Positions 2,445-19,909 of a DNA stretch of 32,000 bases are shown here, in pieces. The position numbers were made by a program, and so were the translations under genes. The DNA is from Halostella pelagica (GTDB lineage Archaea > Halobacteriota > Halobacteria > Halobacteriales > Natronoarchaeaceae): contig CP040681.1 of the NCBI GenBank assembly GCA_005954745.1, positions 1-32,000 on the forward strand. The letters run 5' to 3'. The notes under the pieces were generated by a model that saw only the letters and a program-made list of their open reading frames with translations, searched no databases and was not told the origin of the DNA. Position 1 is the stretch's first letter. Each line of letters starts with the position of its first letter.

Positions 2445-3449
2445 CTACCGGATCTTCTGGTAGAGGTGGGCCATCTTGTTCATCACGGGCGTCCCGTTTT
2501 CGATGCTGTGGTACGCTTCGAGTTCCGGGCCGAACTTCGCTTTGTACCGGTTGATCCGCGGCGAGTCAGCGCCGACCAGGTCGTAGTACGCCCGGCCGCG
2601 CTCTATCGCGTCGCGCATGACGCGCCAGTCGAGCAGGTCGTTGGTCGCGATGTCGACGTCCGCATCGGTACGGACGCCACCCTGCCACCGGTACACTCGT
2701 TCGCCGTCGTCAAGGACGAGCATGCCGCCGACGAACGTCCCGTCCACGTACAGCGTGTACGGGCGTAACTGCCCATCCGGGAGGCGGTCGAACAGGTCGA
2801 TCACGAACGGCGTCGGCAGATGAAACGAGATGTCCTGTGCCTCGTACCGGTTCCGGACCTGTTCGAGGATCCGCTCTATCGCGGTGTGGCTCCCTTCTTC
2901 GATGACGTAGTCGGCGTCTTCCCCGTCCCGGATGTTGCTCCGCGCGTCGCTGCTGAACCGGCTTTTGACCGCCTCAGTCCCGTCTTCGAGGTCGACGAGG
3001 TACGTGTAATCGGGAGTCACATCGTGGTCGTTCCAGATGAACGGACGGAGGTCGTCGTACCGACTGTCTGTCCGGACGTGGGTGTATTTCGGACCGATAT
3101 CGTTCTCGATACGCTCCATGCACCCGTCGAGGAACCGCTTCAGACGGCGCTCGCGTTTGCGTTGTTTCAGTTTCTCCATGTTCAACACGGCCGGCCCGAG
3201 ATAGGGGACTCGTATCTCCGGCGGCGGCGAGAACGCCGTTGACACGGGTCCTTTCTTGATCTCGAACACCGGAAAGAGCCCCACAGCCTCCTGTCCTTTG
3301 AACCCAGCAAACCGATACAGGTTCGCGCTCGTGTACTCCGCCTGAACGTCGAGTGCGTCGAACTGGTGAAAGAGGTTCGTTCCGTCGGAACGGTCGACGT
3401 AACGGTCCCACTCCTCTGCGTCGTCGATAGTGCGAATTTCAATGCTCAT
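2445..3449 (-). CDS. FemAB-family / GNAT (PF13480-like) acyl- or aminoacyl-transferase, paralogue 1 (334 aa)
   Basis: C-terminal YYDLVGADSPRINRYKAKFGPE resembles the Y-D/N-F-G-G ... FK..FG signature of FemX/FemAB-like proteins, and YRWQGG is present. About one third identical by eye to the ORF at 13470-14474, with the same length. Confidence 0.7.
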   Translation of the reverse strand: MSIEIRTIDDAEEWDRYVDRSDGTNLFHQFDALDVQAEYTSANLYRFAGFKGQEAVGLFPVFEIKKGPVSTAFSPPPEIRVPYLGPAVLNMEKLKQRKRERRLKRFLDGCMERIENDIGPKYTHVRTDSRYDDLRPFIWNDHDVTPDYTYLVDLEDGTEAVKSRFSSDARSNIRDGEDADYVIEEGSHTAIERILEQVRNRYEAQDISFHLPTPFVIDLFDRLPDGQLRPYTLYVDGTFVGGMLVLDDGERVYRWQGGVRTDADVDIATNDLLDWRVMRDAIERGRAYYDLVGADSPRINRYKAKFGPELEAYHSIENGTPVMNKMAHLYQKIR

Positions 3450-5507: not shown

Positions 5508-6059
5508 TCATCGATTCATGTTCACCAGGTCTGCGTCTATCTCTGGTTCGTGGTACCTGTTGTAAAGGTAGTTAGCGACGGCCGAGAGACCGAACGCGAC
5601 GATGATGGCGATGCCGGCGACGTACTCCGGAACCGCGGCGAAAACGGAGACGTCGAACGCGACGAGCGTGTACAGTACCGCGCCTGCGACCGCGACCGCG
5701 AGGTAGTACATCTGCCAGGGGAGCGTCTCCTCGTCGCTGCTGAGATAGCTTCCGAGCTCGTCCGCTCGGTCGGCCAACGTCACTATCCCACTGTCTTGAT
5801 CGTACTCGATGATGCCTGCTTCGTCTAGTTTCGGGATGTGCGTCTGATACAACGAGACGTACACCCGTTTTCGCTGTTGACTTGTGAGTTCCTCGACGTC
5901 CATGTCGTTCTCCCAGGCAGCGACTTCGTCCGCCAGTTCCCGCAGTTCGACTGGCGTCCCTTCCTGGCGCAAGTAGTACAGTACGAACCTGCGTCTAGGG
6001 CTGCTGAGGAGATCGAACACGACGTCCTGCGATAACGCGCTAGTGTCGGATTGAGACAT
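5508..6059 (-). CDS. membrane-tethered winged-HTH (ArsR-like, DUF7344-type) transcription regulator
   Basis: N-terminal VFDLLSSPRRRFVLYYLRQ ... RVYVSLYQTHIPKLDEAGIIEYD is the haloarchaeal wHTH pattern. Two predicted TM helices lie in the C-terminal half. Confidence 0.8.
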   Translation of the reverse strand: MSQSDTSALSQDVVFDLLSSPRRRFVLYYLRQEGTPVELRELADEVAAWENDMDVEELTSQQRKRVYVSLYQTHIPKLDEAGIIEYDQDSGIVTLADRADELGSYLSSDEETLPWQMYYLAVAVAGAVLYTLVAFDVSVFAAVPEYVAGIAIIVAFGLSAVANYLYNRYHEPEIDADLVNMNR

Positions 6060-6450: not shown

Positions 6451-7035
6451 ATGGCAGAGCTCGTGACCGGCGACGGCACTGACGTCGACGAAGGTGCCAC
6501 AGTCGGCTACGAGTACGCCACTGACTGCGGACCGACGGTCCTGGGTGACGACTCCACAGTCCGACACGGATCGATACTGTACGGGGACGTTCGTGCGGGA
6601 GACGAGTTCGTCACGGGACACGGGGTCCTCGTCAGAGAAGAGTCGACGTTCGGCGACGACGTCGTCGTCGGGACCGACACGGTGATCGACGGTCGCGTCG
6701 ATGTCGGGTCTCACGTCAGTATTCAGACCGGCGTCTACGTCCCTCCGGAGAGCACTATCGGCGACAACGTGTTCCTCGGACCTCGGGCCGTGTTAACGAA
6801 CGACGCATACCCCGTCCGCCAGGAGGAGACACTCGACGGTCCGACTATCGAAGACGGCGTCTCCATCGGCGCGAACGCGACGATACTGCCGGGCGTCACC
6901 GTCGGCGCGGGGTCGTTTGTCGCCGCGGGTGCCGTCGTCGACCGCGACGTTCCTCCGGATACCCTGGCGATGGGCGTCCCAGCGGAGTTCGGGCCGCTAC
7001 CGGGCGTTCTCGAAGGTGGGAATCAGATAGCATGA
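6451..7035 (+). CDS. hexapeptide-repeat (left-handed beta-helix) N-acetyltransferase, WbpD-like
   Basis: Repeated [LIV]-G-x4 hexapeptides throughout (VGTDTVIDGRVDVGSHVSIQTGVYV...). ATGA overlap with the next gene. Confidence 0.85.
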   Translation: MAELVTGDGTDVDEGATVGYEYATDCGPTVLGDDSTVRHGSILYGDVRAGDEFVTGHGVLVREESTFGDDVVVGTDTVIDGRVDVGSHVSIQTGVYVPPESTIGDNVFLGPRAVLTNDAYPVRQEETLDGPTIEDGVSIGANATILPGVTVGAGSFVAAGAVVDRDVPPDTLAMGVPAEFGPLPGVLEGGNQIA

Positions 7036-8111
7036 GTGTCCCGATAGCTTCCCCGGACCTGGACGACGCGGAACGGAAACGCGTCGTCGAGGTCCTGGAG
7101 GACGGTCACCTCGCTGACGGTCCGCTCGTCCGGCAGTTCGAATCCGAGTTCGCCGAGTTCTGCGGCGCGGACCGCGGAGTCGCGACGTCGAACGGAACGA
7201 CGGCGCTACACGCCGCGTTTCGTGGGCTCGGCATCGGAGAGGGCGACCGCGTCATCACGACGCCGTTTTCGTTCGTCGCCAGCGCGAACGCGATCAGGTT
7301 CGCGGGCGCGGAACCGGTGTTCGCCGACATCGACCCGGAGACGTACAACCTCGACCCCCACGCGGTCGAAGAGATAGCAAGCGCGGGCGACGTCGACGCT
7401 ATCCTCGCCGTACATCTCTACGGCCTGCCCGCCGAGATGGACCACCTCCGAGATATCGCCGACGACCACGACCTCGCTCTGATCGAGGACGCCGCGCAGG
7501 CACACGACGGCGAGTACGACGGCGAACCGGTCGGTTCCCTCGGCGACGCCGCCTGCTTCTCGTTCTATCCGACGAAGAACATGACGACGGGCGAGGGCGG
7601 CATGATCACCACCGACCGCGATGAGGTCGCCGACCGCGCCGCGCGGTTCATCAATCACGGGCGCACGGACACGTACGAACACGCCGAGGTCGGACACAAC
7701 TTCCGGATGACGAGTATCGCGGCGGCCATCGGTCGCGCCCAACTGGAGAAACTCCCCGGCAACGTCGCGGACCGTCGCTCGAACGCGGCGCGGATCACCG
7801 AAGCAGTTCGCGATGCCCCGTCGCTGACCCCGCCGGCCGAACCGGACGGTCGGCGACACGCGTACCACCAGTACACGGTTCGATGCGAAGACCGCGAGGC
7901 GTTCCGGACACATCTAGAGAGCCGTGACGTGGCCACGAGCGTCTACTACCCTCGGCCGATTCACGACCAACCGGCGTACGCTGACGTGTCCGCCGACGCT
8001 CCGGAGGCCGAGCGAGCGAGCAATGAGGTGGTTTCGCTCCCGGTGCATCAGGGGCTCTCCCAGGACGACATCAGACAGATCACTGACTGCGTCAACACTT
8101 ATCATGACTAA
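7032..8111 (+). CDS. DegT/DnrJ/EryC1/StrS-family PLP aminotransferase, WbpE-like
   Basis: TSNGTTALH, DAAQAHD and SFYPTKNMTTGEGG (the PLP-lysine motif region), 359 aa. Confidence 0.9.
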   Translation: MSVPIASPDLDDAERKRVVEVLEDGHLADGPLVRQFESEFAEFCGADRGVATSNGTTALHAAFRGLGIGEGDRVITTPFSFVASANAIRFAGAEPVFADIDPETYNLDPHAVEEIASAGDVDAILAVHLYGLPAEMDHLRDIADDHDLALIEDAAQAHDGEYDGEPVGSLGDAACFSFYPTKNMTTGEGGMITTDRDEVADRAARFINHGRTDTYEHAEVGHNFRMTSIAAAIGRAQLEKLPGNVADRRSNAARITEAVRDAPSLTPPAEPDGRRHAYHQYTVRCEDREAFRTHLESRDVATSVYYPRPIHDQPAYADVSADAPEAERASNEVVSLPVHQGLSQDDIRQITDCVNTYHD

Positions 8112-9078
8112 GACCAGAGTTGGAGTCATCGGTGTCGGCAGTATGGGCCGACACCATGCGCGGGTGTATCGAGAGTTACCGAACGCCGAACTGTTCGCCG
8201 TCGCCGATGCTGATTCGGACCGCGCACAGGAGGTTGCCGACGATTACGACGCGCGGGTCCTCTCGACCGAGGGGCTGCTTAACGCGGTCGACGCGGTGTC
8301 GATAACGGTCCCGACGGAGTATCACTACGCGGTCGCGCGAGACGCGATAGACCACGGAACGCACGTTCTCGTCGAGAAACCGCTCGTCGACGACCCGGAT
8401 GCAGGGCGCGAACTCGTCGAGTGCGCGGACGAGGCCGGACTCACCTTGCAGGTCGGTCACATCGAGCGGTTCAACCCCGCGGTCCAGACGCTCCAGGATA
8501 TCGTCCCCGACCTGGACGTGATCGCGGTCGACGCCCGGCGACTGGGCCCCCCGGTCGACCGCGAGATCAGCGATAGCGTCGTCCTCGATCTCATGATCCA
8601 CGACATCGACATCGTGCTCTCGCTCGTCGACAACGACCTCGAAACCGTCGAATCGTTCCGAACCGGAGACGATCCGTACGTGGCGGCGTCGCTACAGTTC
8701 GAAAACGACACCGTCGGGACGCTGACGGCGAGCCGCGTCACTCAGGAGCGAGTGCGTCAGCTGTCTATCACGGCCCGCGAGTGCCAGGTCAACGTCGACT
8801 ACATGGAACAGACGGTTCAGATACACCGTCACTCCCTCCCTGAGTACGTCGAGACGAACGGCGACGTCCGCTATCGGAACGAGAACGTCATCGAGCGGCC
8901 GACCGTCGACAACGGGGAACCACTGAAGAAGGAACTCGCGTCGTTCGTCGAGGCCGCGACGACGGGCGAAGAGCCCGAGGTAACGGGGGACGACGGGATC
9001 CGTGCCCTGGAGGTCGCCAGAACTATCGACCGGACGGCGTCCGACCGAACTGTCCGGCCGAGGGAGGTGCGTCACTGA
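8104..9078 (+). CDS. Gfo/Idh/MocA-family NAD(P) oxidoreductase, WbpB-like
   Basis: Start chosen at MTKTRVGVIGVGSMGRHH (Rossmann GxGxxG) with an 8-nt overlap onto the aminotransferase. EKP motif (LVEKPL). The longer ORF from 7924 runs inside the upstream gene. Confidence 0.85.
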   Translation: MTKTRVGVIGVGSMGRHHARVYRELPNAELFAVADADSDRAQEVADDYDARVLSTEGLLNAVDAVSITVPTEYHYAVARDAIDHGTHVLVEKPLVDDPDAGRELVECADEAGLTLQVGHIERFNPAVQTLQDIVPDLDVIAVDARRLGPPVDREISDSVVLDLMIHDIDIVLSLVDNDLETVESFRTGDDPYVAASLQFENDTVGTLTASRVTQERVRQLSITARECQVNVDYMEQTVQIHRHSLPEYVETNGDVRYRNENVIERPTVDNGEPLKKELASFVEAATTGEEPEVTGDDGIRALEVARTIDRTASDRTVRPREVRH

Positions 9079-10442
9079 TGGAGCTAAGCAGGAACGAAAC
9101 AACCAAACTGTACGGGACGGAGAGCGCGATAGAGGACCGGCGCGAGGCGTTCGTCGACGGCGACGTACCGGTCGCGGTGTACGGACTGGGAAAGATGGGT
9201 CTCCCGCTCGCGGTCGTCTATGCGGGCGTCACCGGCAACGTCGTCGGGGCTGACGTCGACCGTGATGTCGTCGACAGGATCAACGACGGCGGCTGTCCCG
9301 TCGAGGGCGAACCGCGTCTCCCGGAACTCACCTCCGCCGCGGTCAACGCGGGGGCGTTCCAGGCGTCCGACGACCCCTCCGCGGTAGCGAACGACGCGAG
9401 CGTTCACGTCGTCATCGTCCCGACGACGCTCCGCGACGACTACCATCCGGACCTTTCGAACCTCCGGACGGCAGTTCGCGACATCGCATCGGGTCTCGAC
9501 CCGGGCGACATGGTCGTCGTCGAGTCGACCGTCCCGCCGCGAACCTGCGAAGACGTCATCGAGCCGGTCCTGATAGAGGAGAGCGGTCTCGCGGCCGACC
9601 AGTTCGGCCTCGCGTTCTGCCCGGAGCGAACGTCCAGCGGACGGGCGCTCAAAGACATCCGCGGAGCGTATCCCAAGATCGTCGGCGGCGTCGACGCGGA
9701 AAGCACGGTCGTCGCGGAGACTATCTACGACGAACTCACCGTCAACGACATCGTTCCGGTCAGCGACGCCACGACGGCGGAGTGCGTGAAAGTGTTCGAG
9801 GGCGTGTACCGGGACGTCAACATCGCTCTCGCGAACGAACTCGCAACGTTCACTGACGAGCTAGGCGTCGATGTCAACGAGGCTATCGAAACGGCGAACA
9901 CCCAGCCGTTCTGTGACATCCACGACCCCGGGGTCGGCGTGGGCGGCCACTGCATCCCCTACTACCCCTACTTCCTGATCAAGGAACTCGCGAGCGACGC
10001 GCCGATGCTGCGGACGGCGCGCGACGTGAACGACGAGATGCCGCTTTTCGCGGTCAGAAAACTCGTCGAAGGGTTACAGCGCGCCGGCAAACATATCGAG
10101 GACTCGGCGATACTCGTCCTCGGCGTGACGTACCGGGCGGGCGTCGCCGAGACCCGCAAGACGCCGGCACGGCCGATAGCCGAGAAGCTGAACCAGTTCG
10201 GCGCGACTGTCGTCGCGGCCGACCCGATGATCGACGACTTCTCCGAGTTCGACGTGTACGGTGCGGCGACCGACTCCGTCACCGACCTGGACATCGACGG
10301 GGCGATACTGGTGACGGACCACGAGGAGTTCGAGACGCTCGACTGGAACGCCTTCGACGAGAACATGGTCGTCGTAGACGGCCGTGACGCGCTCGAACTC
10401 GGTGACACCGACCACCACGTCTACACGATCGGGAGCGGGTAA
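9078..10442 (+). CDS. UDP-N-acetyl-hexosamine 6-dehydrogenase (nucleotide-sugar dehydrogenase, WbpA/WecC-like)
   Basis: VAVYGLGKMGLPLA Rossmann motif, catalytic-Cys region GVGGHCIPYYP, 454 aa. TGATG overlap with the upstream gene. Confidence 0.9.
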   Translation: MELSRNETTKLYGTESAIEDRREAFVDGDVPVAVYGLGKMGLPLAVVYAGVTGNVVGADVDRDVVDRINDGGCPVEGEPRLPELTSAAVNAGAFQASDDPSAVANDASVHVVIVPTTLRDDYHPDLSNLRTAVRDIASGLDPGDMVVVESTVPPRTCEDVIEPVLIEESGLAADQFGLAFCPERTSSGRALKDIRGAYPKIVGGVDAESTVVAETIYDELTVNDIVPVSDATTAECVKVFEGVYRDVNIALANELATFTDELGVDVNEAIETANTQPFCDIHDPGVGVGGHCIPYYPYFLIKELASDAPMLRTARDVNDEMPLFAVRKLVEGLQRAGKHIEDSAILVLGVTYRAGVAETRKTPARPIAEKLNQFGATVVAADPMIDDFSEFDVYGAATDSVTDLDIDGAILVTDHEEFETLDWNAFDENMVVVDGRDALELGDTDHHVYTIGSG

Positions 10443-10444
10443 CA

Positions 10445-11476
10445 ATGTACCGGGGCAAGACAGTCGGCGTTGTCGTGCCGGCCTACAACGAGGAGGGGTT
10501 CGTGGGTGACGTGATAGACTCCTTGCCGGAGTTCGTCGACAAGGTGTACGTCGTCGACGACTGCTCGACTGACGGGACCTGGAAGGAGGTCCAGCGACAC
10601 GCAGCGAAGGCGAACGCGCGGCGAAGCGACCCGCCGATCCCCGACGGCGGCGTCGGGTCAAACGACGATGTCGAAGCGGACGGCGGCGTCTCTCTCGACT
10701 CCCGCGTCACGACGATCCGCCACGACGAAAACAGCGGCGTCGGTGCTGCGATCAAGACCGGGTACGCCCGCGCCCGGGAGGCCGGCCTGGACGTAACCGC
10801 GGTGATAAACGGGGACGGGCAGATGGACCCGGATATTCTGGACCGGATCATCGACCCCGTCGTCAACGGAGAGGCCGACTACTCGAAAGGGAACCGTCTG
10901 CTCTCCGCTTCCCACCGCGATGGGATGTCCAGTTGGCGGCTGTTCGGCAACTCGATACTGACTTTCCTCACGAAGATAGCGAGCGGGTACTGGCGGATGG
11001 TCGACCCCCAGAACGGCTACACGGCCATCTCCCTTCGGGCGCTCGAACGGTTAGACGTCGATAATCTGTACGACGAGTACGGGTTCCTGAACGACGTTCT
11101 GGTCAAACTGAACACCCACGGGTTCCGGGTCGCCGACGTTCCGATGGAGGCACACTACGGGAACGAACAGAGCAACATCAAATACGCCGACTTCATTCCG
11201 CGGCTGTCTCTGTTGCTCTTCCGGAACTTCCTGTGGCGTCTCAAGATGAAATATCTCGTGTACGACTTCCATCCCCTCGTTCTCCTGTACACGTTCGGAG
11301 CGCTGAGTTCGCTCTCCGGCGTGGCCCTCGCAGGGGTCACGTTAACGGGGATGGACTCCGTAGTCACGGGCAGTGCGCTGTCGATACTGCTCGTCCTGTT
11401 CGGGGGGACACTATGTACGCTGGCAATGATATTCGATAAGCAGCACAACGAAAATCTGGAACGAAGAACCTGGTGA
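10445..11476 (+). CDS. family 2 glycosyltransferase with two C-terminal TM helices
   Basis: VVVPAYNEEGFV ... VVDDCSTDGT ... NGDGQMDP (DxD-type), and C-terminal hydrophobic segments as in dolichyl-phosphate sugar synthases. Confidence 0.85.
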   Translation: MYRGKTVGVVVPAYNEEGFVGDVIDSLPEFVDKVYVVDDCSTDGTWKEVQRHAAKANARRSDPPIPDGGVGSNDDVEADGGVSLDSRVTTIRHDENSGVGAAIKTGYARAREAGLDVTAVINGDGQMDPDILDRIIDPVVNGEADYSKGNRLLSASHRDGMSSWRLFGNSILTFLTKIASGYWRMVDPQNGYTAISLRALERLDVDNLYDEYGFLNDVLVKLNTHGFRVADVPMEAHYGNEQSNIKYADFIPRLSLLLFRNFLWRLKMKYLVYDFHPLVLLYTFGALSSLSGVALAGVTLTGMDSVVTGSALSILLVLFGGTLCTLAMIFDKQHNENLERRTW

Positions 11477-11484
11477 GAGCATCA

Positions 11485-12546
11485 ATGAAAGTACTGACCG
11501 TCGTCGGTGCACGACCGCAGTTCATCAAGGCGTTTCCGGTTTCGCAGGCGCTTCGAGAGTCACACGAAGAGGTGTTCGTCCACACCGGACAGCACTACGA
11601 CGAAGGCCTCTCGGACATCTTCTTCGAGGAACTTGCGATCCCCGAACCGGACTACCATCTCGGTGTCGGGTCGGCGTCGCACGCGACCCAGACCGCCGAG
11701 ATGATGACTGGAATCGAATCGCTGATCGACGAGGAGTCCCCGGATGTCGTCCTCGTTTACGGGGACACGAACTCGACACTGGCCGCGGCGATCGTCGCTG
11801 CCAAGGAGGATGTCGCGATAGCGCACGTCGAGGCCGGCCTCCGGAGCGAGAACTGGTCGATGCCGGAGGAGGTAAACCGCGTTCTCACCGACCACGCGTC
11901 GGACCTCCTGTTCGCCCCCAGCGAAAGCGCCGCGGAGAACCTCCGTGAAGAGGGTCTCACTGCCGGAGTGCACGTGACCGGCGACGTGATGCACGACGCG
12001 GTTCTCCACGCTCGAACGCGGGCGCAAGACTACTCGTCTATTACCGACGACCTCGGCGTCGACGACGGCGAATACGTCCTCGCCACGGTCCACCGCGCCG
12101 GCAACACTGACGACCCGGAGCGCCTCGAAGCTATCATGTCGGGTCTGTCGGCGTCACCGGCCCCCGTCGTCTTTCCGGCGCACCCGCGGACCGTCGGCGC
12201 ACTCGAGCAGCACGGACTCTGGGAAACGTACGCCGACGAGATGCGACTGATCGAACCGGTCGGATATCTCGATTTCGTTCGACTGCTCGACGGGGCCGAA
12301 CGCGTCGCCACGGACTCCGGTGGCGTTCAGAAGGAGGCGTTCTATCTGGACACCCCCTGCGTGACGCTTCGTAACGAGACGGAGTGGACCGAAACCGTCG
12401 AGTGCGGATGGAACGTTCTCGTCGGCGCGCGGGAGTCGGATATCCGCACAGCGTTGACCCAGCAGTTCGCCCCGGAAGAGAATCCTCCCCTGTACGGGGA
12501 CGGTACTGCCGCCACGAGAATACTGGATGCCCTCAACTATGCGTGA
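11485..12546 (+). CDS. wecB: UDP-N-acetylglucosamine 2-epimerase (non-hydrolysing), WecB/WbpI-like
   Basis: MKVLTVVGARPQFIK ... VHTGQHYD ... VYGDTNSTLA ... TDSGGVQKEA. An alternative GTG start at 11473 would give a GTGA overlap. Confidence 0.9.
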   Translation: MKVLTVVGARPQFIKAFPVSQALRESHEEVFVHTGQHYDEGLSDIFFEELAIPEPDYHLGVGSASHATQTAEMMTGIESLIDEESPDVVLVYGDTNSTLAAAIVAAKEDVAIAHVEAGLRSENWSMPEEVNRVLTDHASDLLFAPSESAAENLREEGLTAGVHVTGDVMHDAVLHARTRAQDYSSITDDLGVDDGEYVLATVHRAGNTDDPERLEAIMSGLSASPAPVVFPAHPRTVGALEQHGLWETYADEMRLIEPVGYLDFVRLLDGAERVATDSGGVQKEAFYLDTPCVTLRNETEWTETVECGWNVLVGARESDIRTALTQQFAPEENPPLYGDGTAATRILDALNYA

Positions 12547-13444
12547 TGACCACGCGTTCGCGCTGTGTCTGACACACGACGTCGATAGGCCGTTCAAAAC
12601 CTATCAGTCGATCTATTACGCGTTGCAGGAGCGGCCGTTGTACCATCTCAAAACGGCGATCCGGCGGACCAACCCGTACTGGCAGTTCGACGAAATACGG
12701 TCGCTGGAAGCCGAACTCGGCGTTCGCTCGGCGTTTTACTTCCTGAACGAACCGCACCTGTTCAGGGGGACCAGCCCCCGCGAGTGGTTTCGACCGGCAC
12801 GGTGGGTTCAACACATCGGGAGTTACGACGTGGAATCGCCGGAGATCGCCGACGTTATCCGGTGCCTGGACGCAAACGGCTGGGAGATCGGCCTCCACGG
12901 GTCCTTCGACTCATACCGCGACAAGGAACGGCTTCGATACGAGAAGGACGTTCTGGAGAACGTTCTGGGTCACCCCATCGTCGGCGGTCGGCAACATTAC
13001 CTGCATCTGGACGTTCCGGAAACCTGGCGGTACCACGACGACCTCGGTCTCCAGTACGACGCCAGCCTCGGGTCGTCACACGAGTACGGTTTCCAGCACG
13101 GGTACGAACCGCTCCGTCCGTTCGGCGATTCGTTCGTCGTCTTCCCGCTGACCGCGATGGAAACCGCCCTTCCGGACCCCGACGAGGAGTTCGATAAAGC
13201 GTTCGAAGCCTGCGAGGACCTGCTCCTGGAGGCCGCGGCGAACGACGCGGTCATGACGGTGTTGTGGCATCCGAGATACTTCAACGAGGACGAATACCCC
13301 GGCTACCGTCGGCTGTACTATCGTCTCGTGGAGCGGGCGCTCGACCTGAACGGCTGGGTCGGTCCGCCCGGCGACCTCTACCAGCAACTGATGTCGACGG
13401 AGGAGCGTGCGGAACGGGGTATGGAGAGGATAACAAAGTTCTAA
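12527..13444 (+). CDS. polysaccharide deacetylase-like (CE4 / beta-alpha barrel deacetylase superfamily) protein
   Basis: LTHDVD near the N-terminus and GWEIGLHGS resemble deacetylase metal-site motifs. No signal peptide. An alternative ATG at 12539 gives an 8-nt overlap. Confidence 0.6.
   Translation: MPSTMRDDHAFALCLTHDVDRPFKTYQSIYYALQERPLYHLKTAIRRTNPYWQFDEIRSLEAELGVRSAFYFLNEPHLFRGTSPREWFRPARWVQHIGSYDVESPEIADVIRCLDANGWEIGLHGSFDSYRDKERLRYEKDVLENVLGHPIVGGRQHYLHLDVPETWRYHDDLGLQYDASLGSSHEYGFQHGYEPLRPFGDSFVVFPLTAMETALPDPDEEFDKAFEACEDLLLEAAANDAVMTVLWHPRYFNEDEYPGYRRLYYRLVERALDLNGWVGPPGDLYQQLMSTEERAERGMERITKF
13430..13438 (+). promoter_or_regulatory. TATA-like box ATAACAAAG (internal promoter candidate)
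   Basis: Lies inside the last codons of the deacetylase gene, 40 nt upstream of ATG 13470. Confidence 0.35.
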
Positions 13445-13469
13445 TCCACCTCACCGAGGAACGAACCAG

Positions 13470-14474
13470 ATGAACATCGAACGCCTGACGTTGGACCAGT
13501 GGGCAGACGCCCTACCGTCCGGCGGATTCGACGTGTTTCACACTCCTGAAGCGTTGCGAGTACTCGACGACCACGCCCCCGGGACTATGACGCTACTCGG
13601 CGGGTTCAAGGGACAGCAGTCCGTCGCACTGTTTCCCGCGTTCGTCCGAAAACGGTCTGTCGGCCGGGCGGTCACTTCACCGCCACCGTCGATGAGCGTC
13701 CCACACATGGGACCGATCATCAACCCCAATTCGCCGAAACAGCGCAAGCGGGAGAAACTGAACCGGAAGTTCGCTCGGGGCGTACTCGACGAACTGGACG
13801 CGTCGTCCGCACAGACGCTCTTCCGCGTCGTCACGACTCCCGGATACGGCGACCCGCGGCCCTTCGACTGGGCCGACCTCTCCGTCGAACCCGGTTTCAC
13901 GTACCGGTTGCATCTCGACGGGCGGTCGCTCGACGACGTCATGAGTTCGTTTAGTAGCAGCCTCCGCCGAGATATCCGCAAGGCGAAGGAGTCGGACGCG
14001 GAGATCTCGGTCGAGGGTGTCACGGCGGCCCGTACGGTATTCGACCGCATGGTCAACCGGTACGACGAAAACGACGACACGCTCCCTATCACGTGGCCCT
14101 TCATGCGCGACCTGGTCGACGCACTCGACGACCGGTGTCGCGTGTACGTCGTTCGGACGCCGGACGGCGAGTTCCTGAGCGGTATCGTGACGCTCTTTTC
14201 GAACGACACCGCCTACTTCTGGCAGGGCGGCGCTCGGGCCGACTACGACGGCGTCAGCGTCAACAGCCTGCTCCACTGGGCGATCATCGAGGACGTTGTC
14301 GAGGATCCGGTGCTCGATTCGGTCTACCAGTACGACCTCGTCGGCGCGAACACCGAGCGGCTCTGCAAGTACAAAGCGAAGTTCGGCGCACAGTTGCACC
14401 CCTACTACGTCGTGGAATCCGCCGGTCCGAGCATGGAGATCGCAAAGCGGGCCTATCAGCTCGTCAAGCAGTAA
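13470..14474 (+). CDS. FemAB-family / GNAT (PF13480-like) acyl- or aminoacyl-transferase, paralogue 2 (334 aa)
   Basis: Shares with 2445-3449 the blocks GFKGQ..V.LFP, SPPP...VP..GP, KQRKRE, RPF.W.D, FSS..R..IR, Y.WQGG.R.D and YDLVGA...R...YKAKFG. Last gene of the operon. Confidence 0.7.
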   Translation: MNIERLTLDQWADALPSGGFDVFHTPEALRVLDDHAPGTMTLLGGFKGQQSVALFPAFVRKRSVGRAVTSPPPSMSVPHMGPIINPNSPKQRKREKLNRKFARGVLDELDASSAQTLFRVVTTPGYGDPRPFDWADLSVEPGFTYRLHLDGRSLDDVMSSFSSSLRRDIRKAKESDAEISVEGVTAARTVFDRMVNRYDENDDTLPITWPFMRDLVDALDDRCRVYVVRTPDGEFLSGIVTLFSNDTAYFWQGGARADYDGVSVNSLLHWAIIEDVVEDPVLDSVYQYDLVGANTERLCKYKAKFGAQLHPYYVVESAGPSMEIAKRAYQLVKQ

Positions 14475-14679: not shown

Positions 14680-17163
14680 TCAGGTGAGCCGGCGGACTGC
14701 GACGAATCCCGAGAGACAGACCGCAATCAACGCGACGCCGACACCGAACCCGGACATTCCGTTGCTCTCGCTCGTCCCGTTCGTCGGTTCCTCCCCGCTC
14801 TCGGCTTCCTCGACCCGGACCGTTGCTGTCGCCGCTCTCTCCGCAGTTTCTCCAGCAGTGATCTCGTAGGTCCCCGTCCGGTTAAATCGGACTGTGGCGG
14901 TCACGTCGGCCGATCCGTTAGCCGGGACCGTGACAGACTCAGTGGCGACGGGACCGTCGTCGGTGCGGAACGTAACCGTCCGCGTCAGCGCCGAGTCCCG
15001 GTCGTTACTCACCGTCGCCGTCACTTCGACGGGCGTTCCCGCGGTTACCTTCTGGTCGGTCACCGTGGTCTCTCGGACGACGCCTCCCGTTTCGGCGGGG
15101 ACGACCGCTACCGGCGACGATTCGTCGTTCACGGAGAGAGTCGCCTCCCCGGTTTCGTCGGGGCTGACCGGCACGGTCACGGTTTCCGTTCCGTTCGCGG
15201 GCACTGACACCGTCCGCGACGTGACGTTCTCGCCGTCGAGGGCGACTGAGACGGTTTCCGTCGCGTCGGCGGTGCCCTCGTTCCGCAGCGTTGCGGTCAC
15301 GTTGTTCGTCTCGTCGGCGCGGAGTTCGCCGCCGGTTTCGATGGCCGTTACGCTGACGTTCGGCCGCCGCACCGCGAGTGCGACCGACGAGAACTCGCCT
15401 GTAGTCGCTTCGAACCGGTACGGCTCCGCCGGTTCATCGGCCGCCGTCCCGTTCAGCCGGTGCCACTCGTTGCCCGTCCGCTGGTACAGCGCGGCGTCGG
15501 CGGGACGCTCCAGCGATTCCCCGTCCACTTGAACGGAGTACGTAACCGATTCCATCTCGACCGCCGGCCCGTCACTGACCGAGACCGTTACGGGCACGGA
15601 ATCGGCTCGTAAACCGTCGGCCGCTTCGGTAGTCACGCTCGCGTTGAGGCTCTCGGCGCTCTCGGCGGGGACGAACTCGACGCTAACCGACCTGTTTTCC
15701 CTCCTCTCCCCTACCGGTTCGAACTGGACCGCCTCTCCCGCGCGAACGTTCTGGGCGGTCACCCGTGTGCTGTCTCCATCTCTGACCGTCTCTACGGTGG
15801 TCTCCGGCGGACCGGAGGTATCAGATACCGGGGCACTGCCGGCGGCTCCGCCGCCGCTCGGACTCTCGCCGTCATCGTCCTGATTCCCGTTACCGGCATC
15901 GCCGTTTCCGCCGTCCGGTCCCGATCCGTCGCTGTCATCGTCGCTACCGCTCTCGCCACCGCCATTGTTCCCGTCCCCGCCGTCATCGTCCGCTTCGATC
16001 GAAATCTCGAACGATTCCTCTGCGGTGTTCCCGCTCGGGTCGCTAACGGTGACCGTGACGCTGTAACTACCCGCCTCGTCGAACGTGCGGGTGATCTCCT
16101 CGCCGGTCACCGACTCGGTGCCGTCGAAGGTCCACCCGACCGAGGCGACCCGGTGATCGTCGCTCGACTCGCTCGCACTCAGCGTCAGCGTCTCGCCGGC
16201 AGTCCCGCTATCCGGAACGTCAGCCGCGACGGTCGGCGCTGTCTCGTCGGTCACGTCGACCGCGGTCTCGGCGGTATCCCGGTTGCCGTTCCCGTCGACG
16301 ACGGTGACCGTTACGGTCCGTTCACCCGGTGTGTCGTACCCGTATCCGGTCGACGGTTCCGCAGTGGTCCGATCAACCGCTCCGTCGCCGGTCAGATCCC
16401 ATCGGTACTCCGCGATGTTCTCACCCGCCGAACCGCTGGCGTCGAACGTGGCTTCGTCTCCTAGCTCCACGGAACCGGGAGATGCCGCGAGCGAGGCCGA
16501 GGGCGACGCACGGTCGCATCCGCCCGTTCGAACCGTCGCCGAACTGTCCATCGAGAGGTCGACGTGGTCACCGTCGGCGTCGCGGGCCGTCCAGCCTCGG
16601 ACTCCGTCGCTGAACTCCGCTTCGACGGTGATACCGTCCGGTCCAACCCCGCGGAACGCGCCACCGTCCGTGCGGTTTTCCTTCCAGTACCACTCTACGG
16701 TGCTTGCGTCGCCGTCGCGAACGAAACTATCGTTCCGTCTGGGGTAGTCGTCGTCCTCGACGGCCCACTCGCCGTTCTCGGGGAGGTCGGTCAGGGTCGC
16801 GTTTATCTGTCCGCCGCCCTCTCCGTCTCCGAGCCTGCCGTGGATGAAGACGAGGCTCGCTCTCTCGCTCCCGTTGTAGACGAAGAGCTGACTTTCGCCC
16901 GTCCGCTGTAGCTCTCTCGTTCCATAGGAACTGTACACGCCGACGTCGTCCGTTTCGTGCGACCGGTAATCGTAGTAGGAACTGACCGATTCGGTGGCGT
17001 CTCCGTACATGGTTAGTTCCCGGCAGTCCCCGTCCTGTACGACGGACGCGGTTCCCTCGTTCGCCGCAGCGACGGGAACGCCGGATATCAGTGCCACGAA
17101 GCTCGCTGTCGTGAGAACCATCGCGAGCGAGATACTCGCGAAACGCGTTGTTTGAGAATGCAT
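14680..17163 (-). CDS. secreted surface protein: signal peptide, 2 PKD domains, D/G/N-rich linker, PGF-pre-PGF-like region, 2 CARDB-like domains, PGF-CTERM-like anchor
   Basis: Start chosen at MHSQTTRFASISLAMVLTTASFVALISGVPVAAA (signal peptide). PKD signatures are FDASGS...YRWDLTGDG and WTFDG. The C-terminus is SGFGVGVALIAVCLSGFVAVRR. Many N-x-S/T sequons. The 72-codon extension to 17379 overlaps the upstream gene. Confidence 0.85.
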   Translation of the reverse strand: MHSQTTRFASISLAMVLTTASFVALISGVPVAAANEGTASVVQDGDCRELTMYGDATESVSSYYDYRSHETDDVGVYSSYGTRELQRTGESQLFVYNGSERASLVFIHGRLGDGEGGGQINATLTDLPENGEWAVEDDDYPRRNDSFVRDGDASTVEWYWKENRTDGGAFRGVGPDGITVEAEFSDGVRGWTARDADGDHVDLSMDSSATVRTGGCDRASPSASLAASPGSVELGDEATFDASGSAGENIAEYRWDLTGDGAVDRTTAEPSTGYGYDTPGERTVTVTVVDGNGNRDTAETAVDVTDETAPTVAADVPDSGTAGETLTLSASESSDDHRVASVGWTFDGTESVTGEEITRTFDEAGSYSVTVTVSDPSGNTAEESFEISIEADDDGGDGNNGGGESGSDDDSDGSGPDGGNGDAGNGNQDDDGESPSGGGAAGSAPVSDTSGPPETTVETVRDGDSTRVTAQNVRAGEAVQFEPVGERRENRSVSVEFVPAESAESLNASVTTEAADGLRADSVPVTVSVSDGPAVEMESVTYSVQVDGESLERPADAALYQRTGNEWHRLNGTAADEPAEPYRFEATTGEFSSVALAVRRPNVSVTAIETGGELRADETNNVTATLRNEGTADATETVSVALDGENVTSRTVSVPANGTETVTVPVSPDETGEATLSVNDESSPVAVVPAETGGVVRETTVTDQKVTAGTPVEVTATVSNDRDSALTRTVTFRTDDGPVATESVTVPANGSADVTATVRFNRTGTYEITAGETAERAATATVRVEEAESGEEPTNGTSESNGMSGFGVGVALIAVCLSGFVAVRRLT

Positions 17164-17207
17164 CTTGACGAAACCTACTGGAGGCGGTGTTCTTTCAGAA
17201 TGCTGTC

Positions 17208-18329
17208 CTACGGTTTCGTTATATCGGCGCTCGGCTCCGTGAGCCGTCCCCTCTCGGTTTCGTGCCGATGGGCCATCTCGGTCCTGGACTCTATTGAGTC
17301 GGGGTCGGTCGCGATGTCTACGATAACGTCGGTGAGGTTCACCGTCTCGCTCATCAACGTCTCGCGCCGACGCTCCCACCGTTCCGTCGCCGTCTCGTCG
17401 GCGAGTAACTCCGTCGCCGTCTCGGACACCTGGTCGAACGCCCGGAGGTTCCGAACCAGGCCGCGGTTTTCGAGTTCGATGAAGTTACCCATGTCGTCCT
17501 CGCCGACGAAGGAGTTCGACCTGATAGCGGGCGTTCCGAGCAGCGCCGCCTCCGTTACCATCGTCTGCGTGTCCGCGACGAGCAAGTCCGCCTCGGCCAG
17601 TGCGTCGTGGAGCAGCGCCGGGTGGACGTCGAACTCCCGGGCCGGCAGCGAGTCCGTGTCCATCTCCTCCCCTTCGTCGGAGAGCAACACCGTCGCCTCG
17701 TCGGCCAGATCCTCCACCAGTTGTCGCCGTTGCCCGGGGGTAAACCCGCCCTCTCCGACGTCGTGGTGAGAGCCGAAGGCGTTGAACCGCACCAGTACGA
17801 AGCGCTCGTCGGGGTCGAGACCGAGACGGTCGCGGACGTCCCCGGCGGGTTCGTACACGTCCGGGTGGAGATACGCACATTCCTTGAACCCGGGGAACTC
17901 GTAGTGGTCTTCGCCGAGATCCTTCTGGAAGGCGGCGGGGGTCAACATCGCGTCCGCGAACGGCTTCGATATCTTGTGGTCGAGCGACGTGGGTTCCGAG
18001 TCGAGGATGAGTACGACCGGCGAACGCGTTACCGCTCCGGCGTGAGCGGAGTACGCGCCCATTCCGAACACGAGATCAGGGTCGAACCGGACGCCGTAAC
18101 TGAATATGTTCCGGTAGTGGTTCGGCAGGTTACGCAGTAACGAGTATTTGCTCGTATCACACTGACCGTACGTCGTGTACGGCAGGTCGTACCAGTCGAG
18201 CAGTTCCGTCGTACAGCCGTAGTCCCGGGCGAGGATCCGGGCGTCGTGACCGCGGTTCCGTAGCTCTCTCACCGCGTGCTTGTAGAGGTGCACGTGGGCG
18301 GGCGTATTGGTAAAAAACAACTGTCTCAT
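17208..18329 (-). CDS. DUF354-type protein (GT-B / 2-epimerase-like fold, predicted)
   Basis: 373 aa. N-terminal MRQLFFTNTPAHVHLYKHAVREL and C-terminal ADLLVADTQTMVTEAALLGTPAIR are typical of archaeal DUF354. Confidence 0.75.
   Translation of the reverse strand: MRQLFFTNTPAHVHLYKHAVRELRNRGHDARILARDYGCTTELLDWYDLPYTTYGQCDTSKYSLLRNLPNHYRNIFSYGVRFDPDLVFGMGAYSAHAGAVTRSPVVLILDSEPTSLDHKISKPFADAMLTPAAFQKDLGEDHYEFPGFKECAYLHPDVYEPAGDVRDRLGLDPDERFVLVRFNAFGSHHDVGEGGFTPGQRRQLVEDLADEATVLLSDEGEEMDTDSLPAREFDVHPALLHDALAEADLLVADTQTMVTEAALLGTPAIRSNSFVGEDDMGNFIELENRGLVRNLRAFDQVSETATELLADETATERWERRRETLMSETVNLTDVIVDIATDPDSIESRTEMAHRHETERGRLTEPSADITKP
17214..17222 (-). promoter_or_regulatory. ATAACGAAA box
   Basis: Lies inside the last codons of the DUF354 gene, 59 nt upstream of ATG 17163. 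Its spacing is longer than the others. Confidence 0.2.
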
Positions 18330-18363: not shown

Positions 18364-18529
18364 GTGGGGCTTGTTCTACCGCCCGGGTGGAGTTTGTGTC
18401 GTGTAACCCCGTTCGGCGCGATCCAAGCGACCCCGCCGTCTACGATTTCTCGGATAGTCGCGCTCTCGCGTTCGACTCTTGCTCAGCTTTTCGTTCGTGA
18501 AACGGTCCCTGATATCCCATAGGCGGGCT

Positions 18530-18538
18530 ATTACAATG
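18530..18538 (+). promoter_or_regulatory. TATA-like box ATTACAATG within ATAGGCGGGCTATTACAATG
   Basis: 18 of 20 nt identical to 22078-22097. Lies 40 nt upstream of ATG 18570 (19-codon uORF). Confidence 0.35.
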
Positions 18539-18682
18539 TTGTCTGCACCGGTAGCAGGCTTCACGACTCATGTTTGCCGGATCTCGAATGAACAGACACC
18601 ACGGGAGACGCTCAGCGAACCTCGTATGACGTTGAATTCACCTGGCAGCACACAGAAGCACCGATCCCCGGGGCCACCATCC

Positions 18683-19909
18683 ATGGAAGGGAACCAGCCG
18701 ACCATCATGCGCATCCTACGAGAGACGGTCGCGTACGCGCGACACCGGGACTACACCGGCTGGGACTACGGCGACGGGATGTCGAGTAAAATTCGGCAGG
18801 CGCTCCCGATCGACAACAAGTGGGTCAACATCGCCTTTCAGGAGACGATAAAGCGGTCCCCGGTCAACGTCAGGCCGCTGTTTCTCGTCGAGCAGCGCCG
18901 TAACTACAAGGGGACGGCGCTGTTTGCGATGACGAACCTGAACTTCCACCGGTTGAAAACGGACATCGATTACGGGACCGACATCGTCGGCGGGACGGAC
19001 TATCTCGACGAGGCACACCAACTGCTCCAGTGGCTGATCGATAACCAGTCGACGGGGTACAGCGGTTTCTGCGGCGGGCACAAACACCAGATCCAGCATC
19101 TCGACGGACGGGGCGTTCCCAACGATCCGGACGTCGTCTCGACGTCGTACGCGGTCAAAGCCCTGCTCTCCGGCACCGATCTGGACTCCCGATACCCCGA
19201 AATAGCCCGCACTGCGGCCGACTTCGTCGTCGAAGACCTCAACTATCGCGAGGTGGACAACGGCGACGGCGCTATCATCAACTATCACAAGAACCACTCC
19301 GAGGAGTACTACACGATAAACGCCGGTGCGCTGGGCGCGCGTCTGCTCATCGAACTGTACGATTACTTCGGCGACGAGAAACTCCGCGAACGCTCGACGA
19401 AGATCCTAGACCATATCGCGAGAAAGCAGACCGACGTCGGCGGCTGGACGTACCGTGATCCCCCGTCCGCGTCACATCTATCGATGGACAGCCACCACAA
19501 CGGGTTCATCATCGAAGCGCTCCAGCAGTACCGGTCGCTCACCGGATCGTCGCGGTACGACGACACTATCGACCGGGCGCTGACGTTCTACCGGGGCCTG
19601 TTCGACCCCGACGGAGCGCCCCACTTCGACGAGTCGAACGCCTACCCGCGGGACATCCACGCGGTGGCGCAGGGGATCCTCGTGTTCACCTACGCCGGCG
19701 ACCTCGAGTTCGCGGAGCGGATCCTCCAATGGACGCTCGACAACCTCTACGCGGGTGACGGACAGTTCTACTACCGGAAACAGCGGTTCTACACCAAGCG
19801 TATCACGCTCATGCGCTGGTGTCAGGCCTGGATGGCCTACGCGATGTCGGAGTATCTGACCGCTCAGCGACTTTCGGGGTCTCCTGACCAGACCGTCGAG
19901 ATCGGATAA
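18683..19909 (+). CDS. uncharacterised protein, possibly alpha/alpha-toroid (six-hairpin / prenyltransferase-like) fold
   Basis: Long acidic ORF with GGW-type motifs (DVGGWTYRDP, DSHHNGFIIEAL). The start is uncertain: in-frame ATGs at 18626, 18683 and 18707. Sequence upstream of 18626 is not acidic or coding-like. Confidence 0.65.
   Translation: MEGNQPTIMRILRETVAYARHRDYTGWDYGDGMSSKIRQALPIDNKWVNIAFQETIKRSPVNVRPLFLVEQRRNYKGTALFAMTNLNFHRLKTDIDYGTDIVGGTDYLDEAHQLLQWLIDNQSTGYSGFCGGHKHQIQHLDGRGVPNDPDVVSTSYAVKALLSGTDLDSRYPEIARTAADFVVEDLNYREVDNGDGAIINYHKNHSEEYYTINAGALGARLLIELYDYFGDEKLRERSTKILDHIARKQTDVGGWTYRDPPSASHLSMDSHHNGFIIEALQQYRSLTGSSRYDDTIDRALTFYRGLFDPDGAPHFDESNAYPRDIHAVAQGILVFTYAGDLEFAERILQWTLDNLYAGDGQFYYRKQRFYTKRITLMRWCQAWMAYAMSEYLTAQRLSGSPDQTVEIG

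Follow-up and report, generated by a model that had tools for sequence, protein, structure and literature searches.

Positions 1 to 32,000 of contig CP040681.1 of the haloarchaeon Halostella pelagica (assembly GCA_005954745.1), a stretch with a G+C content of about 63% that we refer to as the window, carry an amino-sugar operon whose last two genes encode a putative de-N-acetylase and a Fem-like transferase, here called Fem1. Judging from the sequences and predicted structures of the two proteins, this pair is probably the archaeal counterpart of the two enzymes that complete the Wbp/Vim pathway in bacteria, where an N-acetyl group is proposed to be removed from a diacetamido uronic acid and replaced by an amino acid. 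We thus regard the module not as a new kind of system, but as an archaeal member of this pathway. The two genes are:

12527–13444, plus strand: VimE-like de-N-acetylase of predicted CE4 fold, catalytic domain only (305 residues; identified with NF053580, hhalign and AlphaFold2 (AF2)/Foldseek)
13470–14474, plus strand: Fem1, putative VimA-like N-aminoacyl transferase with a Fem (tandem-GNAT) fold (334 residues; identified with PF13480, TIGR03019, hhalign and AF2/Foldseek)

The arrangement of the two open reading frames (ORFs) is as the initial annotation, made from the sequence alone, had described it. The ATG of the deacetylase gene at 12527 lies 20 nucleotides inside the epimerase ORF (11473–12546), which ends with a TGA at 12544–12546; its own TAA (13442–13444) is followed by exactly 25 nucleotides and then by the ATG of Fem1 at 13470. 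The motifs highlighted there are also found, namely LTHDVD (residues 15–20) and GWEIGLHGS (118–126) in the deacetylase, and YFWQGG (249–254), YDLVGA (288–293) and YKAKFG (301–306) in Fem1. Since neither protein has a hydrophobic segment, both are expected to be cytoplasmic, in agreement with the location that had been proposed for the deacetylase. A secreted polysaccharide deacetylase was considered and ruled out, the protein having neither a signal nor a transmembrane segment.

The pair closes a block of eight same-strand genes (6451–14474) with overlapping or near-abutting junctions, and its placement at the end of an amino-sugar operon in the initial annotation was thus correct. A bacterial-type scan, which is uninformative for archaea, detected no terminator or promoter after the operon. 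The six genes upstream of the pair, with their frequencies among 80 related loci described below, are:

6451–7035, plus strand: WbpD-like hexapeptide-repeat N-acetyltransferase (3-N-acetylation), the first gene of the operon (Pfam Hexapep, E 2e-21; 49 of 80 loci)
7032–8111, plus strand: WbpE-like DegT/DnrJ aminotransferase (3-amination; PF01041, E 9e-120; 41 of 80 loci)
8122–9078, plus strand: WbpB-like UDP-GlcNAc(A) 3-dehydrogenase (NF040723, archaeal UDP-GlcNAc 3-dehydrogenase, E 1e-71; Pfam GFO_IDH_MocA)
9078–10442, plus strand: WbpA/WecC-like nucleotide-sugar 6-dehydrogenase, which makes the uronic acid (TIGR03026, E 6e-104)
10445–11476, plus strand: GT2 glycosyltransferase of the polyprenyl-phosphate sugar synthase type (AglJ/PpgS-like), with two C-terminal transmembrane helices at residues 277–318 (PF00535)
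11473–12546, plus strand: WbpI/WecB-type non-hydrolysing UDP-sugar 2-epimerase (TIGR00236, 305 bits against a cutoff of 210; PF02350, E 3.5e-103)

The first five enzyme types and the epimerase form a complete set for the synthesis of UDP-2,3-diacetamido-2,3-dideoxy-glucuronic or -mannuronic acid. Some further models are matched below their cutoffs, namely the archaeal UDP-ManNAc dehydrogenase model by the 6-dehydrogenase (E 7e-91) and the AglJ (E 2e-19) and PpgS (E 6e-16) models by the GT2 protein. For the 3-dehydrogenase, the mechanically called ORF (7924–9078, plus strand) opens with a GTG within the aminotransferase gene, at 7924; family alignments as well as the Rossmann motif begin at the ATG at 8122, which is likely to be the true start.

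From the folds, homologies, conserved catalytic residues and gene order described in the following, we infer this route. The six upstream genes would yield UDP-GlcNAc3NAcA, which is probably epimerized to the manno form by the WbpI-type enzyme, given that this gene is translationally coupled to that of the deacetylase. The VimE-like enzyme would then hydrolyze one N-acetyl group of the UDP- or lipid-linked sugar, by bacterial logic the original 2-N-acetyl, as the WbpD step would otherwise be pointless. The VimA-like enzyme would acylate the freed amine with an amino acid by means of a conserved C-terminal Tyr-Lys pair, most probably using an aminoacyl-tRNA as the donor. Finally, the aminoacylated sugar would be incorporated into a surface glycan, be it an exopolysaccharide (EPS), a wall polymer or a protein glycan, and the GT2 of the operon and conserved membrane partners may carry out this transfer.

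The chemistry that we propose has been described in bacteria. In Porphyromonas gingivalis, the product of the Wbp enzymes is converted to 2-N-seryl-3-N-acetylglucuronamide, and in Tannerella forsythia to 2-N-glycyl-3-N-acetylmannuronic acid (Veith et al., 2020; PMC7468200). The latter, a manno product, fits the WbpI epimerase encoded directly upstream of our pair. It has been proposed that VimE removes the 2-N-acetyl group and that VimA adds the amino acid; replacement of P. gingivalis vimA by the T. forsythia gene changed serine to glycine in the product, so that the transfer of these amino acids by VimA rests on genetic evidence in bacteria (PMC7468200). The genes vimA, vimE and vimF are adjacent in Porphyromonas, and clustering of wbp genes with vimE and vimA has also been reported in Pseudomonas, Aeromonas and Vibrio (PMC7468200). 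Archaea are not mentioned in the Vim papers.

As a reference for sequence comparisons, we used a Parabacteroides distasonis locus found by plasmid search, with the gene order bcp-recA-GNAT-deacetylase-(PIG-L)-glycosyltransferase. This arrangement corresponds to bcp-recA-vimA-vimE-vimF in Porphyromonas. On NF053580, the NCBIfam model for 'UDP-2,3-diacetamido-2,3-dideoxy-alpha-D-glucuronate deacetylase VimE', the P. distasonis deacetylase reaches 731.7 bits and is a bona fide VimE, since this exceeds the equivalog cutoff of 440 bits.

The haloarchaeal deacetylase is a distant homologue of this protein. NF053580 is its only match in NCBIfam (57.5 bits, E 8.7e-16, profile positions 161–427 of 431), and is likewise matched by all 42 of its haloarchaeal relatives (best member E 1.6e-21), which match essentially no other model; in nine of them, TIGR03006 appears as a weak secondary match. 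In a direct comparison with hhalign, the profile of the haloarchaeal family aligns with residues 163–431 of P. distasonis VimE over 246 columns (probability 99.2%, E 1e-19), and the motifs (L)THDVD, GLH(G/S)S, R-x-H and LWH are kept between the two. The polar residues H17, D18, D20, H124, E144, R155, H157, D178 and H248 are invariant in an alignment of haloarchaeal sequences, a relative from a Methanosarcina plasmid (155 bits on the VimE model) and Bacteroidales VimE; E120 of the GWEIGLHGS motif is not kept in true VimE. An Asp-His-His metal triad is plausible.

The AF2 model of the deacetylase (predicted local distance difference test score, pLDDT, 83) was compared with known structures using Foldseek, and returned CE4/NodB-fold proteins with E-values of 2e-10 to 2e-6 and template modelling (TM) scores of about 0.6. 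These include the putative polysaccharide deacetylases 3rxz (E 2e-10), 3s6o and 1z7a, PuuE (3cl6), ArnD (8t0j) and HP0310, and the predicted fold is accordingly a distorted beta/alpha barrel of the NodB type. Sequence searches of the PDB, both with the single sequence and with the family profile, gave no alignment to a solved CE4 enzyme.

Fem1, whose closest relative is a 99% identical protein from Halostella sp. PRR32, contains a clear PF13480 (Acetyltransf_6) domain at residues 160–295 (80.7 bits against a cutoff of 22, E 1.5e-22). With the Pfam family FemAB (PF02388), it scores just under the threshold (16.7 against 24 bits), and some of its orthologues have a precomputed match to this family. 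Its sole NCBIfam match, shared by all 43 relatives, is TIGR03019 (XrtA/PEP-CTERM FemAB), a match that has also been reported for VimA (Veith et al., 2020; PMC7468200). No NCBIfam model for VimA was matched by any of the proteins searched, the true VimA of P. distasonis included. The profile of the Fem1 family does align with the latter in both lobes, pairing Fem1 residues 54–322 with VimA residues 46–302 over 246 columns (hhalign probability 96.9%, E 2e-10).

The AF2 model of Fem1 (pLDDT 91, predicted TM score 0.89) has 22 top matches in the PDB that are, without exception, aminoacyl-tRNA-dependent tandem-GNAT transferases. The best of them is Sba18/Sbb17 with streptothrisamine (E 9e-14, TM scores 0.67/0.78); the model further reaches TM scores of 0.71 with W. 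viridescens FemX (1ne9, about 354 columns) and 0.69 with FemA, and the aminoacyl-lipid synthases MprF/aaPGS are also among the matches. The first tandem GNAT that uses acyl-CoA follows at rank 23 with a TM score of 0.52. The FemX/FemAB/PF13480-like identity suggested by the initial annotation is thereby confirmed, and the case that it had named as refuting its proposal, a plain acetyl-CoA GNAT without a second lobe, was not found; fold and sequence neighbours rule out such a single-lobe enzyme.

Sequence searches lead to the same neighbours, provided that the profile is broad enough. While PDB searches with the single sequence or the close family gave just a marginal FemX match, a profile of 55 sequences had FemX (1.8e-13 and 3e-11), Sba18/Sbb17 (2e-9) and FemA (2e-5) as its only significant matches. 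These sequences come from a large family, for which a representative-library search listed 4,776 representatives; ten sampled members were metagenomic proteins. Fem1 has a catalytic-type Y301-K302 pair. Its K302 is invariant in the 43 close relatives and is retained in 90% or more of the 55 sequences. In a C-terminal sub-profile, K302 (Y-K-A-K-F-G) is matched to the F-K lysines of Sba18 (RFKLGFG) and FemA (KFKKGYN), a position reported to be catalytic in W. viridescens FemX (F304-K305) and DhpH (F328-K329; PMC12945691).

A further property concerns charge. Fem1 (net charge −7) and its paralogue Fem2, encoded elsewhere in the window (−15), are the least acidic soluble proteins of the stretch, the others ranging from −20 to −95, and both contain a conserved basic helix at positions 86–106 with a net charge of +7 over 20 residues, which would fit the binding of a polyanion such as tRNA. 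It is the fold, the sequence neighbours, the catalytic lysine and this helix that point to an aminoacyl-tRNA as the donor.

The same evidence bears on the nature of the transferred group. Fem1 could instead transfer a non-amino acyl group, such as a glyceroyl, hydroxyacyl or other short acyl, from acyl-CoA or another activated acid, with the order of the two steps unchanged. PF13480 is named an acetyltransferase domain, the annotation of the gene reads GNAT N-acetyltransferase, VimA was formerly called an acetyl-CoA transferase, and no dedicated tRNA gene was found in the window. The N-glycan of Methanoculleus marisnigri, moreover, contains a 2,3-diaminoglucuronamide that is N-acylated with acetate and glycerate and, in chemical terms, closely resembles the seryl sugar of P. 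gingivalis. Phenylacetate-CoA-ligase-family genes also adjoin related genes in two loci, one on a Methanosarcina vacuolata plasmid and the other the PEP-CTERM FemAB locus of Desulfovibrio vulgaris (pDV 68179–93078), and hint that acids activated as adenylates or CoA esters may serve some of the system's relatives. On the other hand, all significant sequence and structure relatives with a known function use aminoacyl-tRNA, the Fem catalytic lysine and the basic helix are kept, acyl-CoA tandem GNATs match Fem1 clearly worse (TM score 0.52 or lower), and the vimA swap in bacteria alters the amino acid that is incorporated. We therefore consider a non-amino acyl donor unlikely and prefer aminoacylation.

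The genomic context suggests that the two proteins act together. A genome scan gave 80 haloarchaeal loci with a Fem1 orthologue (52–61% identity), which we then searched by tblastn with all proteins of the window; since all of the loci come from one class, they are not independent samples. The deacetylase gene is found within 10 kb of Fem1 in 66 of them, in at least 36 immediately upstream and on the same strand, and 43 of these 66 loci also carry at least three wbp genes. The commonest order, WbpD-WbpE-WbpB-WbpA-(GT2)-WbpI-deacetylase-Fem1, occurs in Halorussus, Haladaptatus, Halomicrococcus, Halococcus salifodinae and others. In Haloferax, orf476 (a conserved protein described below) and Fem2 are inserted between the two genes, and in Natrialba and Natrinema a DUF354 gene and orf476; as the pair stays together despite these insertions, its linkage survives rearrangement. 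Independent support for the pairing comes from bacteria, in the form of the vimA-vimE locus of Bacteroidales.

These observations also speak to the idea that the two genes are mere neighbours with different substrates, the deacetylase trimming a polysaccharide in the manner of PgaB/IcaB and Fem1 aminoacylating some other molecule, be it a peptide or, in the way of MprF, a lipid. Such a separation would be in line with the MprF-type aminoacyl-lipid synthases among the structural matches of Fem1, with the 14 loci in which Fem1 has no deacetylase gene within 10 kb, and with the Methanosarcina vacuolata plasmid, which carries the deacetylase without a Fem gene. It is hard to reconcile with the co-orientation of the pair and its spacing, which is of the translational-coupling type, with a linkage that holds through rearrangements in 66 of 80 loci, and with the same pairing in Bacteroidales and other bacteria, in which genetic work has linked the two genes to a single sugar. 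In addition, polymer deacetylases act outside the cell, whereas this deacetylase is cytoplasmic. Unrelated substrates thus appear highly improbable.

A third alternative retains the cooperation of the genes in the operon, but moves the deacetylation to a later stage. The GT2 protein would first make a dolichyl-phosphate-sugar, which would then be de-N-acetylated in a manner reminiscent of ArnC/ArnD. The route might stop at the free amine, or an amino acid might be added to it on the lipid. ArnD is indeed the fifth-ranked structural match of the deacetylase (E 4e-9), an AglJ/PpgS-type GT2 with C-terminal transmembrane helices lies within the operon, between WbpA and WbpI in 26 of the 80 loci, and the conserved protein orf618 with 12 predicted transmembrane segments could be an outward-facing transferase. 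Yet most loci with the pair, among them all those of Haloferax, have no GT2 gene, the deacetylase has no membrane segment, and NCBI names VimE a UDP-sugar deacetylase. We give a low probability to this sequence of events, which would alter the stage of the chemistry and not the chemistry itself.

Several observations weigh against a Wbp/Vim-type function. On the side of the deacetylase, the score of 57.5 bits is far below the VimE equivalog cutoff of 440 bits, and the N-terminal domain of VimE, about 160 residues long, is missing from the archaeal proteins. A Pfam scan found no family at E <= 0.01, PF01522 (CE4) included, and the canonical H-x-x-x-H metal motif of CE4 enzymes is not evident in the sequence. 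The 'CE4-like' label of the initial annotation consequently rests on the predicted fold and the homology to VimE. Fem1, for its part, scores just 29.2 bits on TIGR03019, far below the cutoff of 260. P. distasonis VimA (locus positions 7556–8509) has a phenylalanine (FFREFG) at the position of the Fem catalytic lysine, which is kept in Fem enzymes, in the PEP-CTERM FemAB of Desulfovibrio and in the proteins from haloarchaea; either this single-sequence alignment is shifted by one, an arginine being the next residue, or VimA has a different catalytic arrangement. An aminoacyl-tRNA donor is putative for VimA itself as well, and the window lacks, as mentioned, a dedicated tRNA gene. To these points we add the 14 loci, Halococcus morrhuae among them, with Fem1 and no nearby deacetylase gene. 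Lastly, we found no report of an aminoacylated 2,3-diamino uronic acid from a haloarchaeon in the literature, and the EPS of Haloferax denitrificans, which contains GlcA2,3NAc, is described with N-acetyl groups only and no amino-acid substituent, though the cluster is present in this organism. As the strict equivalog thresholds are not reached, we describe the two proteins as homologous to VimE and VimA and as probably working like them, not as proven orthologues.

The likeness to the Wbp/Vim pathway nevertheless extends to the system as a whole: both proteins are homologous to their bacterial counterparts, a Wbp set feeds the pair, and the two genes are adjacent and co-oriented. There are also clear differences. 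The archaeal host has no lipopolysaccharide, type IX secretion system (T9SS) or PorU; the order is deacetylase then transferase, whereas in Bacteroidales vimA precedes vimE; the deacetylase is reduced to the catalytic part; the archaeal proteins are just 19–24% identical to their Vim counterparts; and the archaeal transferase keeps the Fem catalytic lysine, unlike P. distasonis VimA. A second Fem paralogue and an embedded GT2 are additional features here, and neither a WbpS amidotransferase nor a clear VimF orthologue was identified. In sum, the deacetylate-then-aminoacylate idea of the initial annotation gains support from the homology to VimE and VimA, the Fem fold, the catalytic motif and the synteny.

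Other systems resemble parts of this module. Sba18, Sbb17 and Orf11, which depend on Gly-tRNA and attach glycine to the amino sugar of streptothrisamine in the BD-12/streptothricin pathway (PDB 9wqy, 9wqx), share the C-terminal F/Y-K-x-x-F-G motif with Fem1, and their acceptor is an amino-sugar amine, as we infer for Fem1; with Orf11, an enzyme of the Sba18 type, the glycine of Gly-tRNA ends up on an amino-sugar amine (PMC12945691). By contrast, they are secondary-metabolite enzymes of Streptomyces that are only 13% identical to Fem1 and have no deacetylase partner, and they act on a nucleoside-like antibiotic intermediate rather than on a nucleotide sugar. FemX, FemA and FemB have the tandem-GNAT fold and the position of the catalytic lysine in common with Fem1, but are transferases of the peptidoglycan interpeptide bridge that modify a lysine side chain, whereas the haloarchaeal host has no peptidoglycan and the acceptor is probably a sugar amine; the coiled-coil arm of FemA is not found in Fem1.

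The XrtA/PEP-CTERM loci for bacterial EPS likewise combine a FemAB protein (TIGR03019) with a deacetylase (TIGR03006). The former is the best NCBIfam match of our transferase, at scores far below the cutoffs, and the Desulfovibrio PEP-CTERM FemAB is 24% identical to Fem1 over 94% of its length. A scan of ORFs in the window revealed neither an exosortase nor an archaeosortase gene; the bacterial proteins are themselves uncharacterised. In the ArnC/ArnD system, a polyprenyl-phosphate sugar synthase of the GT2 type works with a cytoplasmic N-deacylase of CE4 fold, one of the top five structural matches of our deacetylase. It differs in the sugar and the acyl group (Ara4FN, deformylase), and the product of ArnD is not re-acylated; similarity between the deacetylase and ArnD was not found at the sequence level.

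Within the archaea, Methanococcus maripaludis uses a Wbp-type pathway that makes UDP-GlcNAc3NAcA/ManNAc3NAcA for its archaellin N-glycan. The same five upstream enzyme types are encoded in the window. Methanococcal N-glycans, however, carry a threonine that is amide-linked to the C-6 carboxyl group and an acetamidino group on N-3, which is a different chemistry, and we know of no deacetylase/Fem pair in methanococci. The Methanosarcina vacuolata plasmid (42813–58133) encodes the closer VimE-like deacetylase of 155 bits in a glycan cluster without a Fem-like gene; an extension of the pair to Methanosarcina was consequently dropped, with the deacetylase alone being present there.

According to the initial annotation, such a decoration is uncharacterised for haloarchaeal glycans. 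This holds insofar as the literature searched assigns no gene to an N-aminoacyl or N-glyceroyl sugar in archaea. The novelty is nevertheless smaller than implied, because the Wbp/Vim chemistry has been described in bacteria and because glycine and N-glycyl-glucosaminyl bridges have been known from the wall of Halococcus morrhuae since 1979. The Fem1 orthologue of this species is an obvious candidate for the enzyme that makes these bridges; in H. morrhuae, H. thailandensis and their relatives, Fem1 sits with DUF354, orf476 and WecB/WecC-like genes, and the deacetylase gene is absent within 10 kb.

If our reading is correct, Wbp/Vim aminoacylation, so far seen in Bacteroidota and a few Proteobacteria, would extend to a whole archaeal class, in which dozens of haloarchaeal genera carry the genes, and a glycan modification that nobody has sought in haloarchaea would be predicted. 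For envelope amino sugars of archaea that bear amino acids, such as the N-glycyl-glucosamine of Halococcus and possibly the N-glyceroyl diaminoglucuronamide of Methanoculleus, these genes would be the first candidates, and Fem1 would be the first archaeal enzyme of the Fem type to use aminoacyl-tRNA outside translation. Because it keeps the canonical Fem lysine, the archaeal enzyme may be a cleaner model than VimA for the donor of this enzyme clade.

The prediction is directly testable, as Haloferax volcanii, which is genetically tractable, has the cluster on pHV4 (215398–240234), directly beside type I-B cas genes. The deacetylase gene is HVO_RS02835 there, by our numbering HVO_A0221, and the two GNAT genes are HVO_RS02845 and HVO_RS02850, by our numbering HVO_A0223/A0224. 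HVO_A0216-A0221 are listed only as a 'putative EPS operon', and the oxidoreductase HVO_A0218 is listed in the predicted provirus region 'ProVir4' and is up-regulated in a cas1/fen1 mutant. We found no literature on HVO_A0217 and HVO_A0220-A0224, and that on the neighbouring tags consists of the EPS operon mention and a transcriptome table. More generally, the cluster is frequent on haloarchaeal megaplasmids, and the Fem-like gene is present on 53 plasmid records. The annotation in archaeal records reads 'polysaccharide deacetylase family protein' and 'GNAT family N-acetyltransferase', occasionally 'FemX'.

The window encodes a second Fem-fold protein, next to the gene of which lies a recurrent neighbour:

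2445–3449, minus strand: Fem2, a second Fem-fold paralogue, 35% identical to Fem1 (BLASTP E 6e-64; PF13480, E 1e-23)
3603–5225, minus strand: alkaline-phosphatase-superfamily phosphodiesterase (PF01663, E 9e-34)

Fem2 shares the Y-K-A-K-F-G motif with Fem1 and recurs near it among the related loci, in Haloferax directly upstream, and its pairing with the phosphodiesterase gene in the same orientation is found again in many haloarchaeal loci. The two Fem proteins could possibly add amino acids sequentially, in the manner of FemX and then FemA.

A more far-reaching idea starts from here. The module might represent the first aminoacyl-tRNA-dependent glycan aminoacylation in Archaea in which the free alpha-amino group of the product serves as a nucleophile for covalent attachment. 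By analogy, PGF-CTERM/archaeosortase substrates might be anchored to the glycan, as PorU does when it attaches T9SS cargo to the seryl or glycyl linking sugar, or peptide-type cross-bridges might form between glycan strands, like the N-glycyl-glucosaminyl bridges of Halococcus, and the two Fem paralogues would then act in sequence like FemX and FemA. We regard this as a long shot.

An 899-residue PKD/CARDB surface protein is encoded at 14680–17379 on the minus strand, convergent with Fem1. It has an SGF...hydrophobic...RR tail that scores 19.2 bits on the PGF-CTERM model (cutoff 24.5) and is probably an archaeosortase substrate. Since none of the 80 related loci contains it, its adjacency to Fem1 may be incidental, and we have not adopted a functional link between it and the pair.

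The remaining conserved neighbours are the following:

5508–6059, minus strand: DUF7344 winged-helix regulator, divergent from the start of the operon (PF24035, E 8e-35; upstream of WbpD in 28 of 80 loci)
17208–18329, minus strand: DUF354 GT-B-like protein (PF04007, E 5e-8; 45 of 80 loci)
18479–19909, plus strand: orf476, a conserved soluble protein with weak (alpha/alpha)6-barrel-type matches (33 of 80 loci)
22123–23979, plus strand: orf618, with 12 hydrophobic (predicted transmembrane) segments and a C-terminal soluble domain (30 of 80 loci)

The DUF354 protein, whose gene is often divergent from orf476 among the loci, is a possible glycosyltransferase for the modified sugar, by analogy with the role of VimF in bacteria. 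For orf476, the weak matches are to the LanM cyclase region (E 5e-5) and, under the cutoff, to GH76 (E 0.002); that it modifies sugars, perhaps as an epimerase, is speculation, and its annotated TTG start probably over-extends the N-terminus. Family searches with orf618 gave no match. From its architecture, it is a candidate transferase or polymerase of the GT-C type, and together with the GT2 of the operon it could form an outward transfer route similar to ArnC/ArnT.

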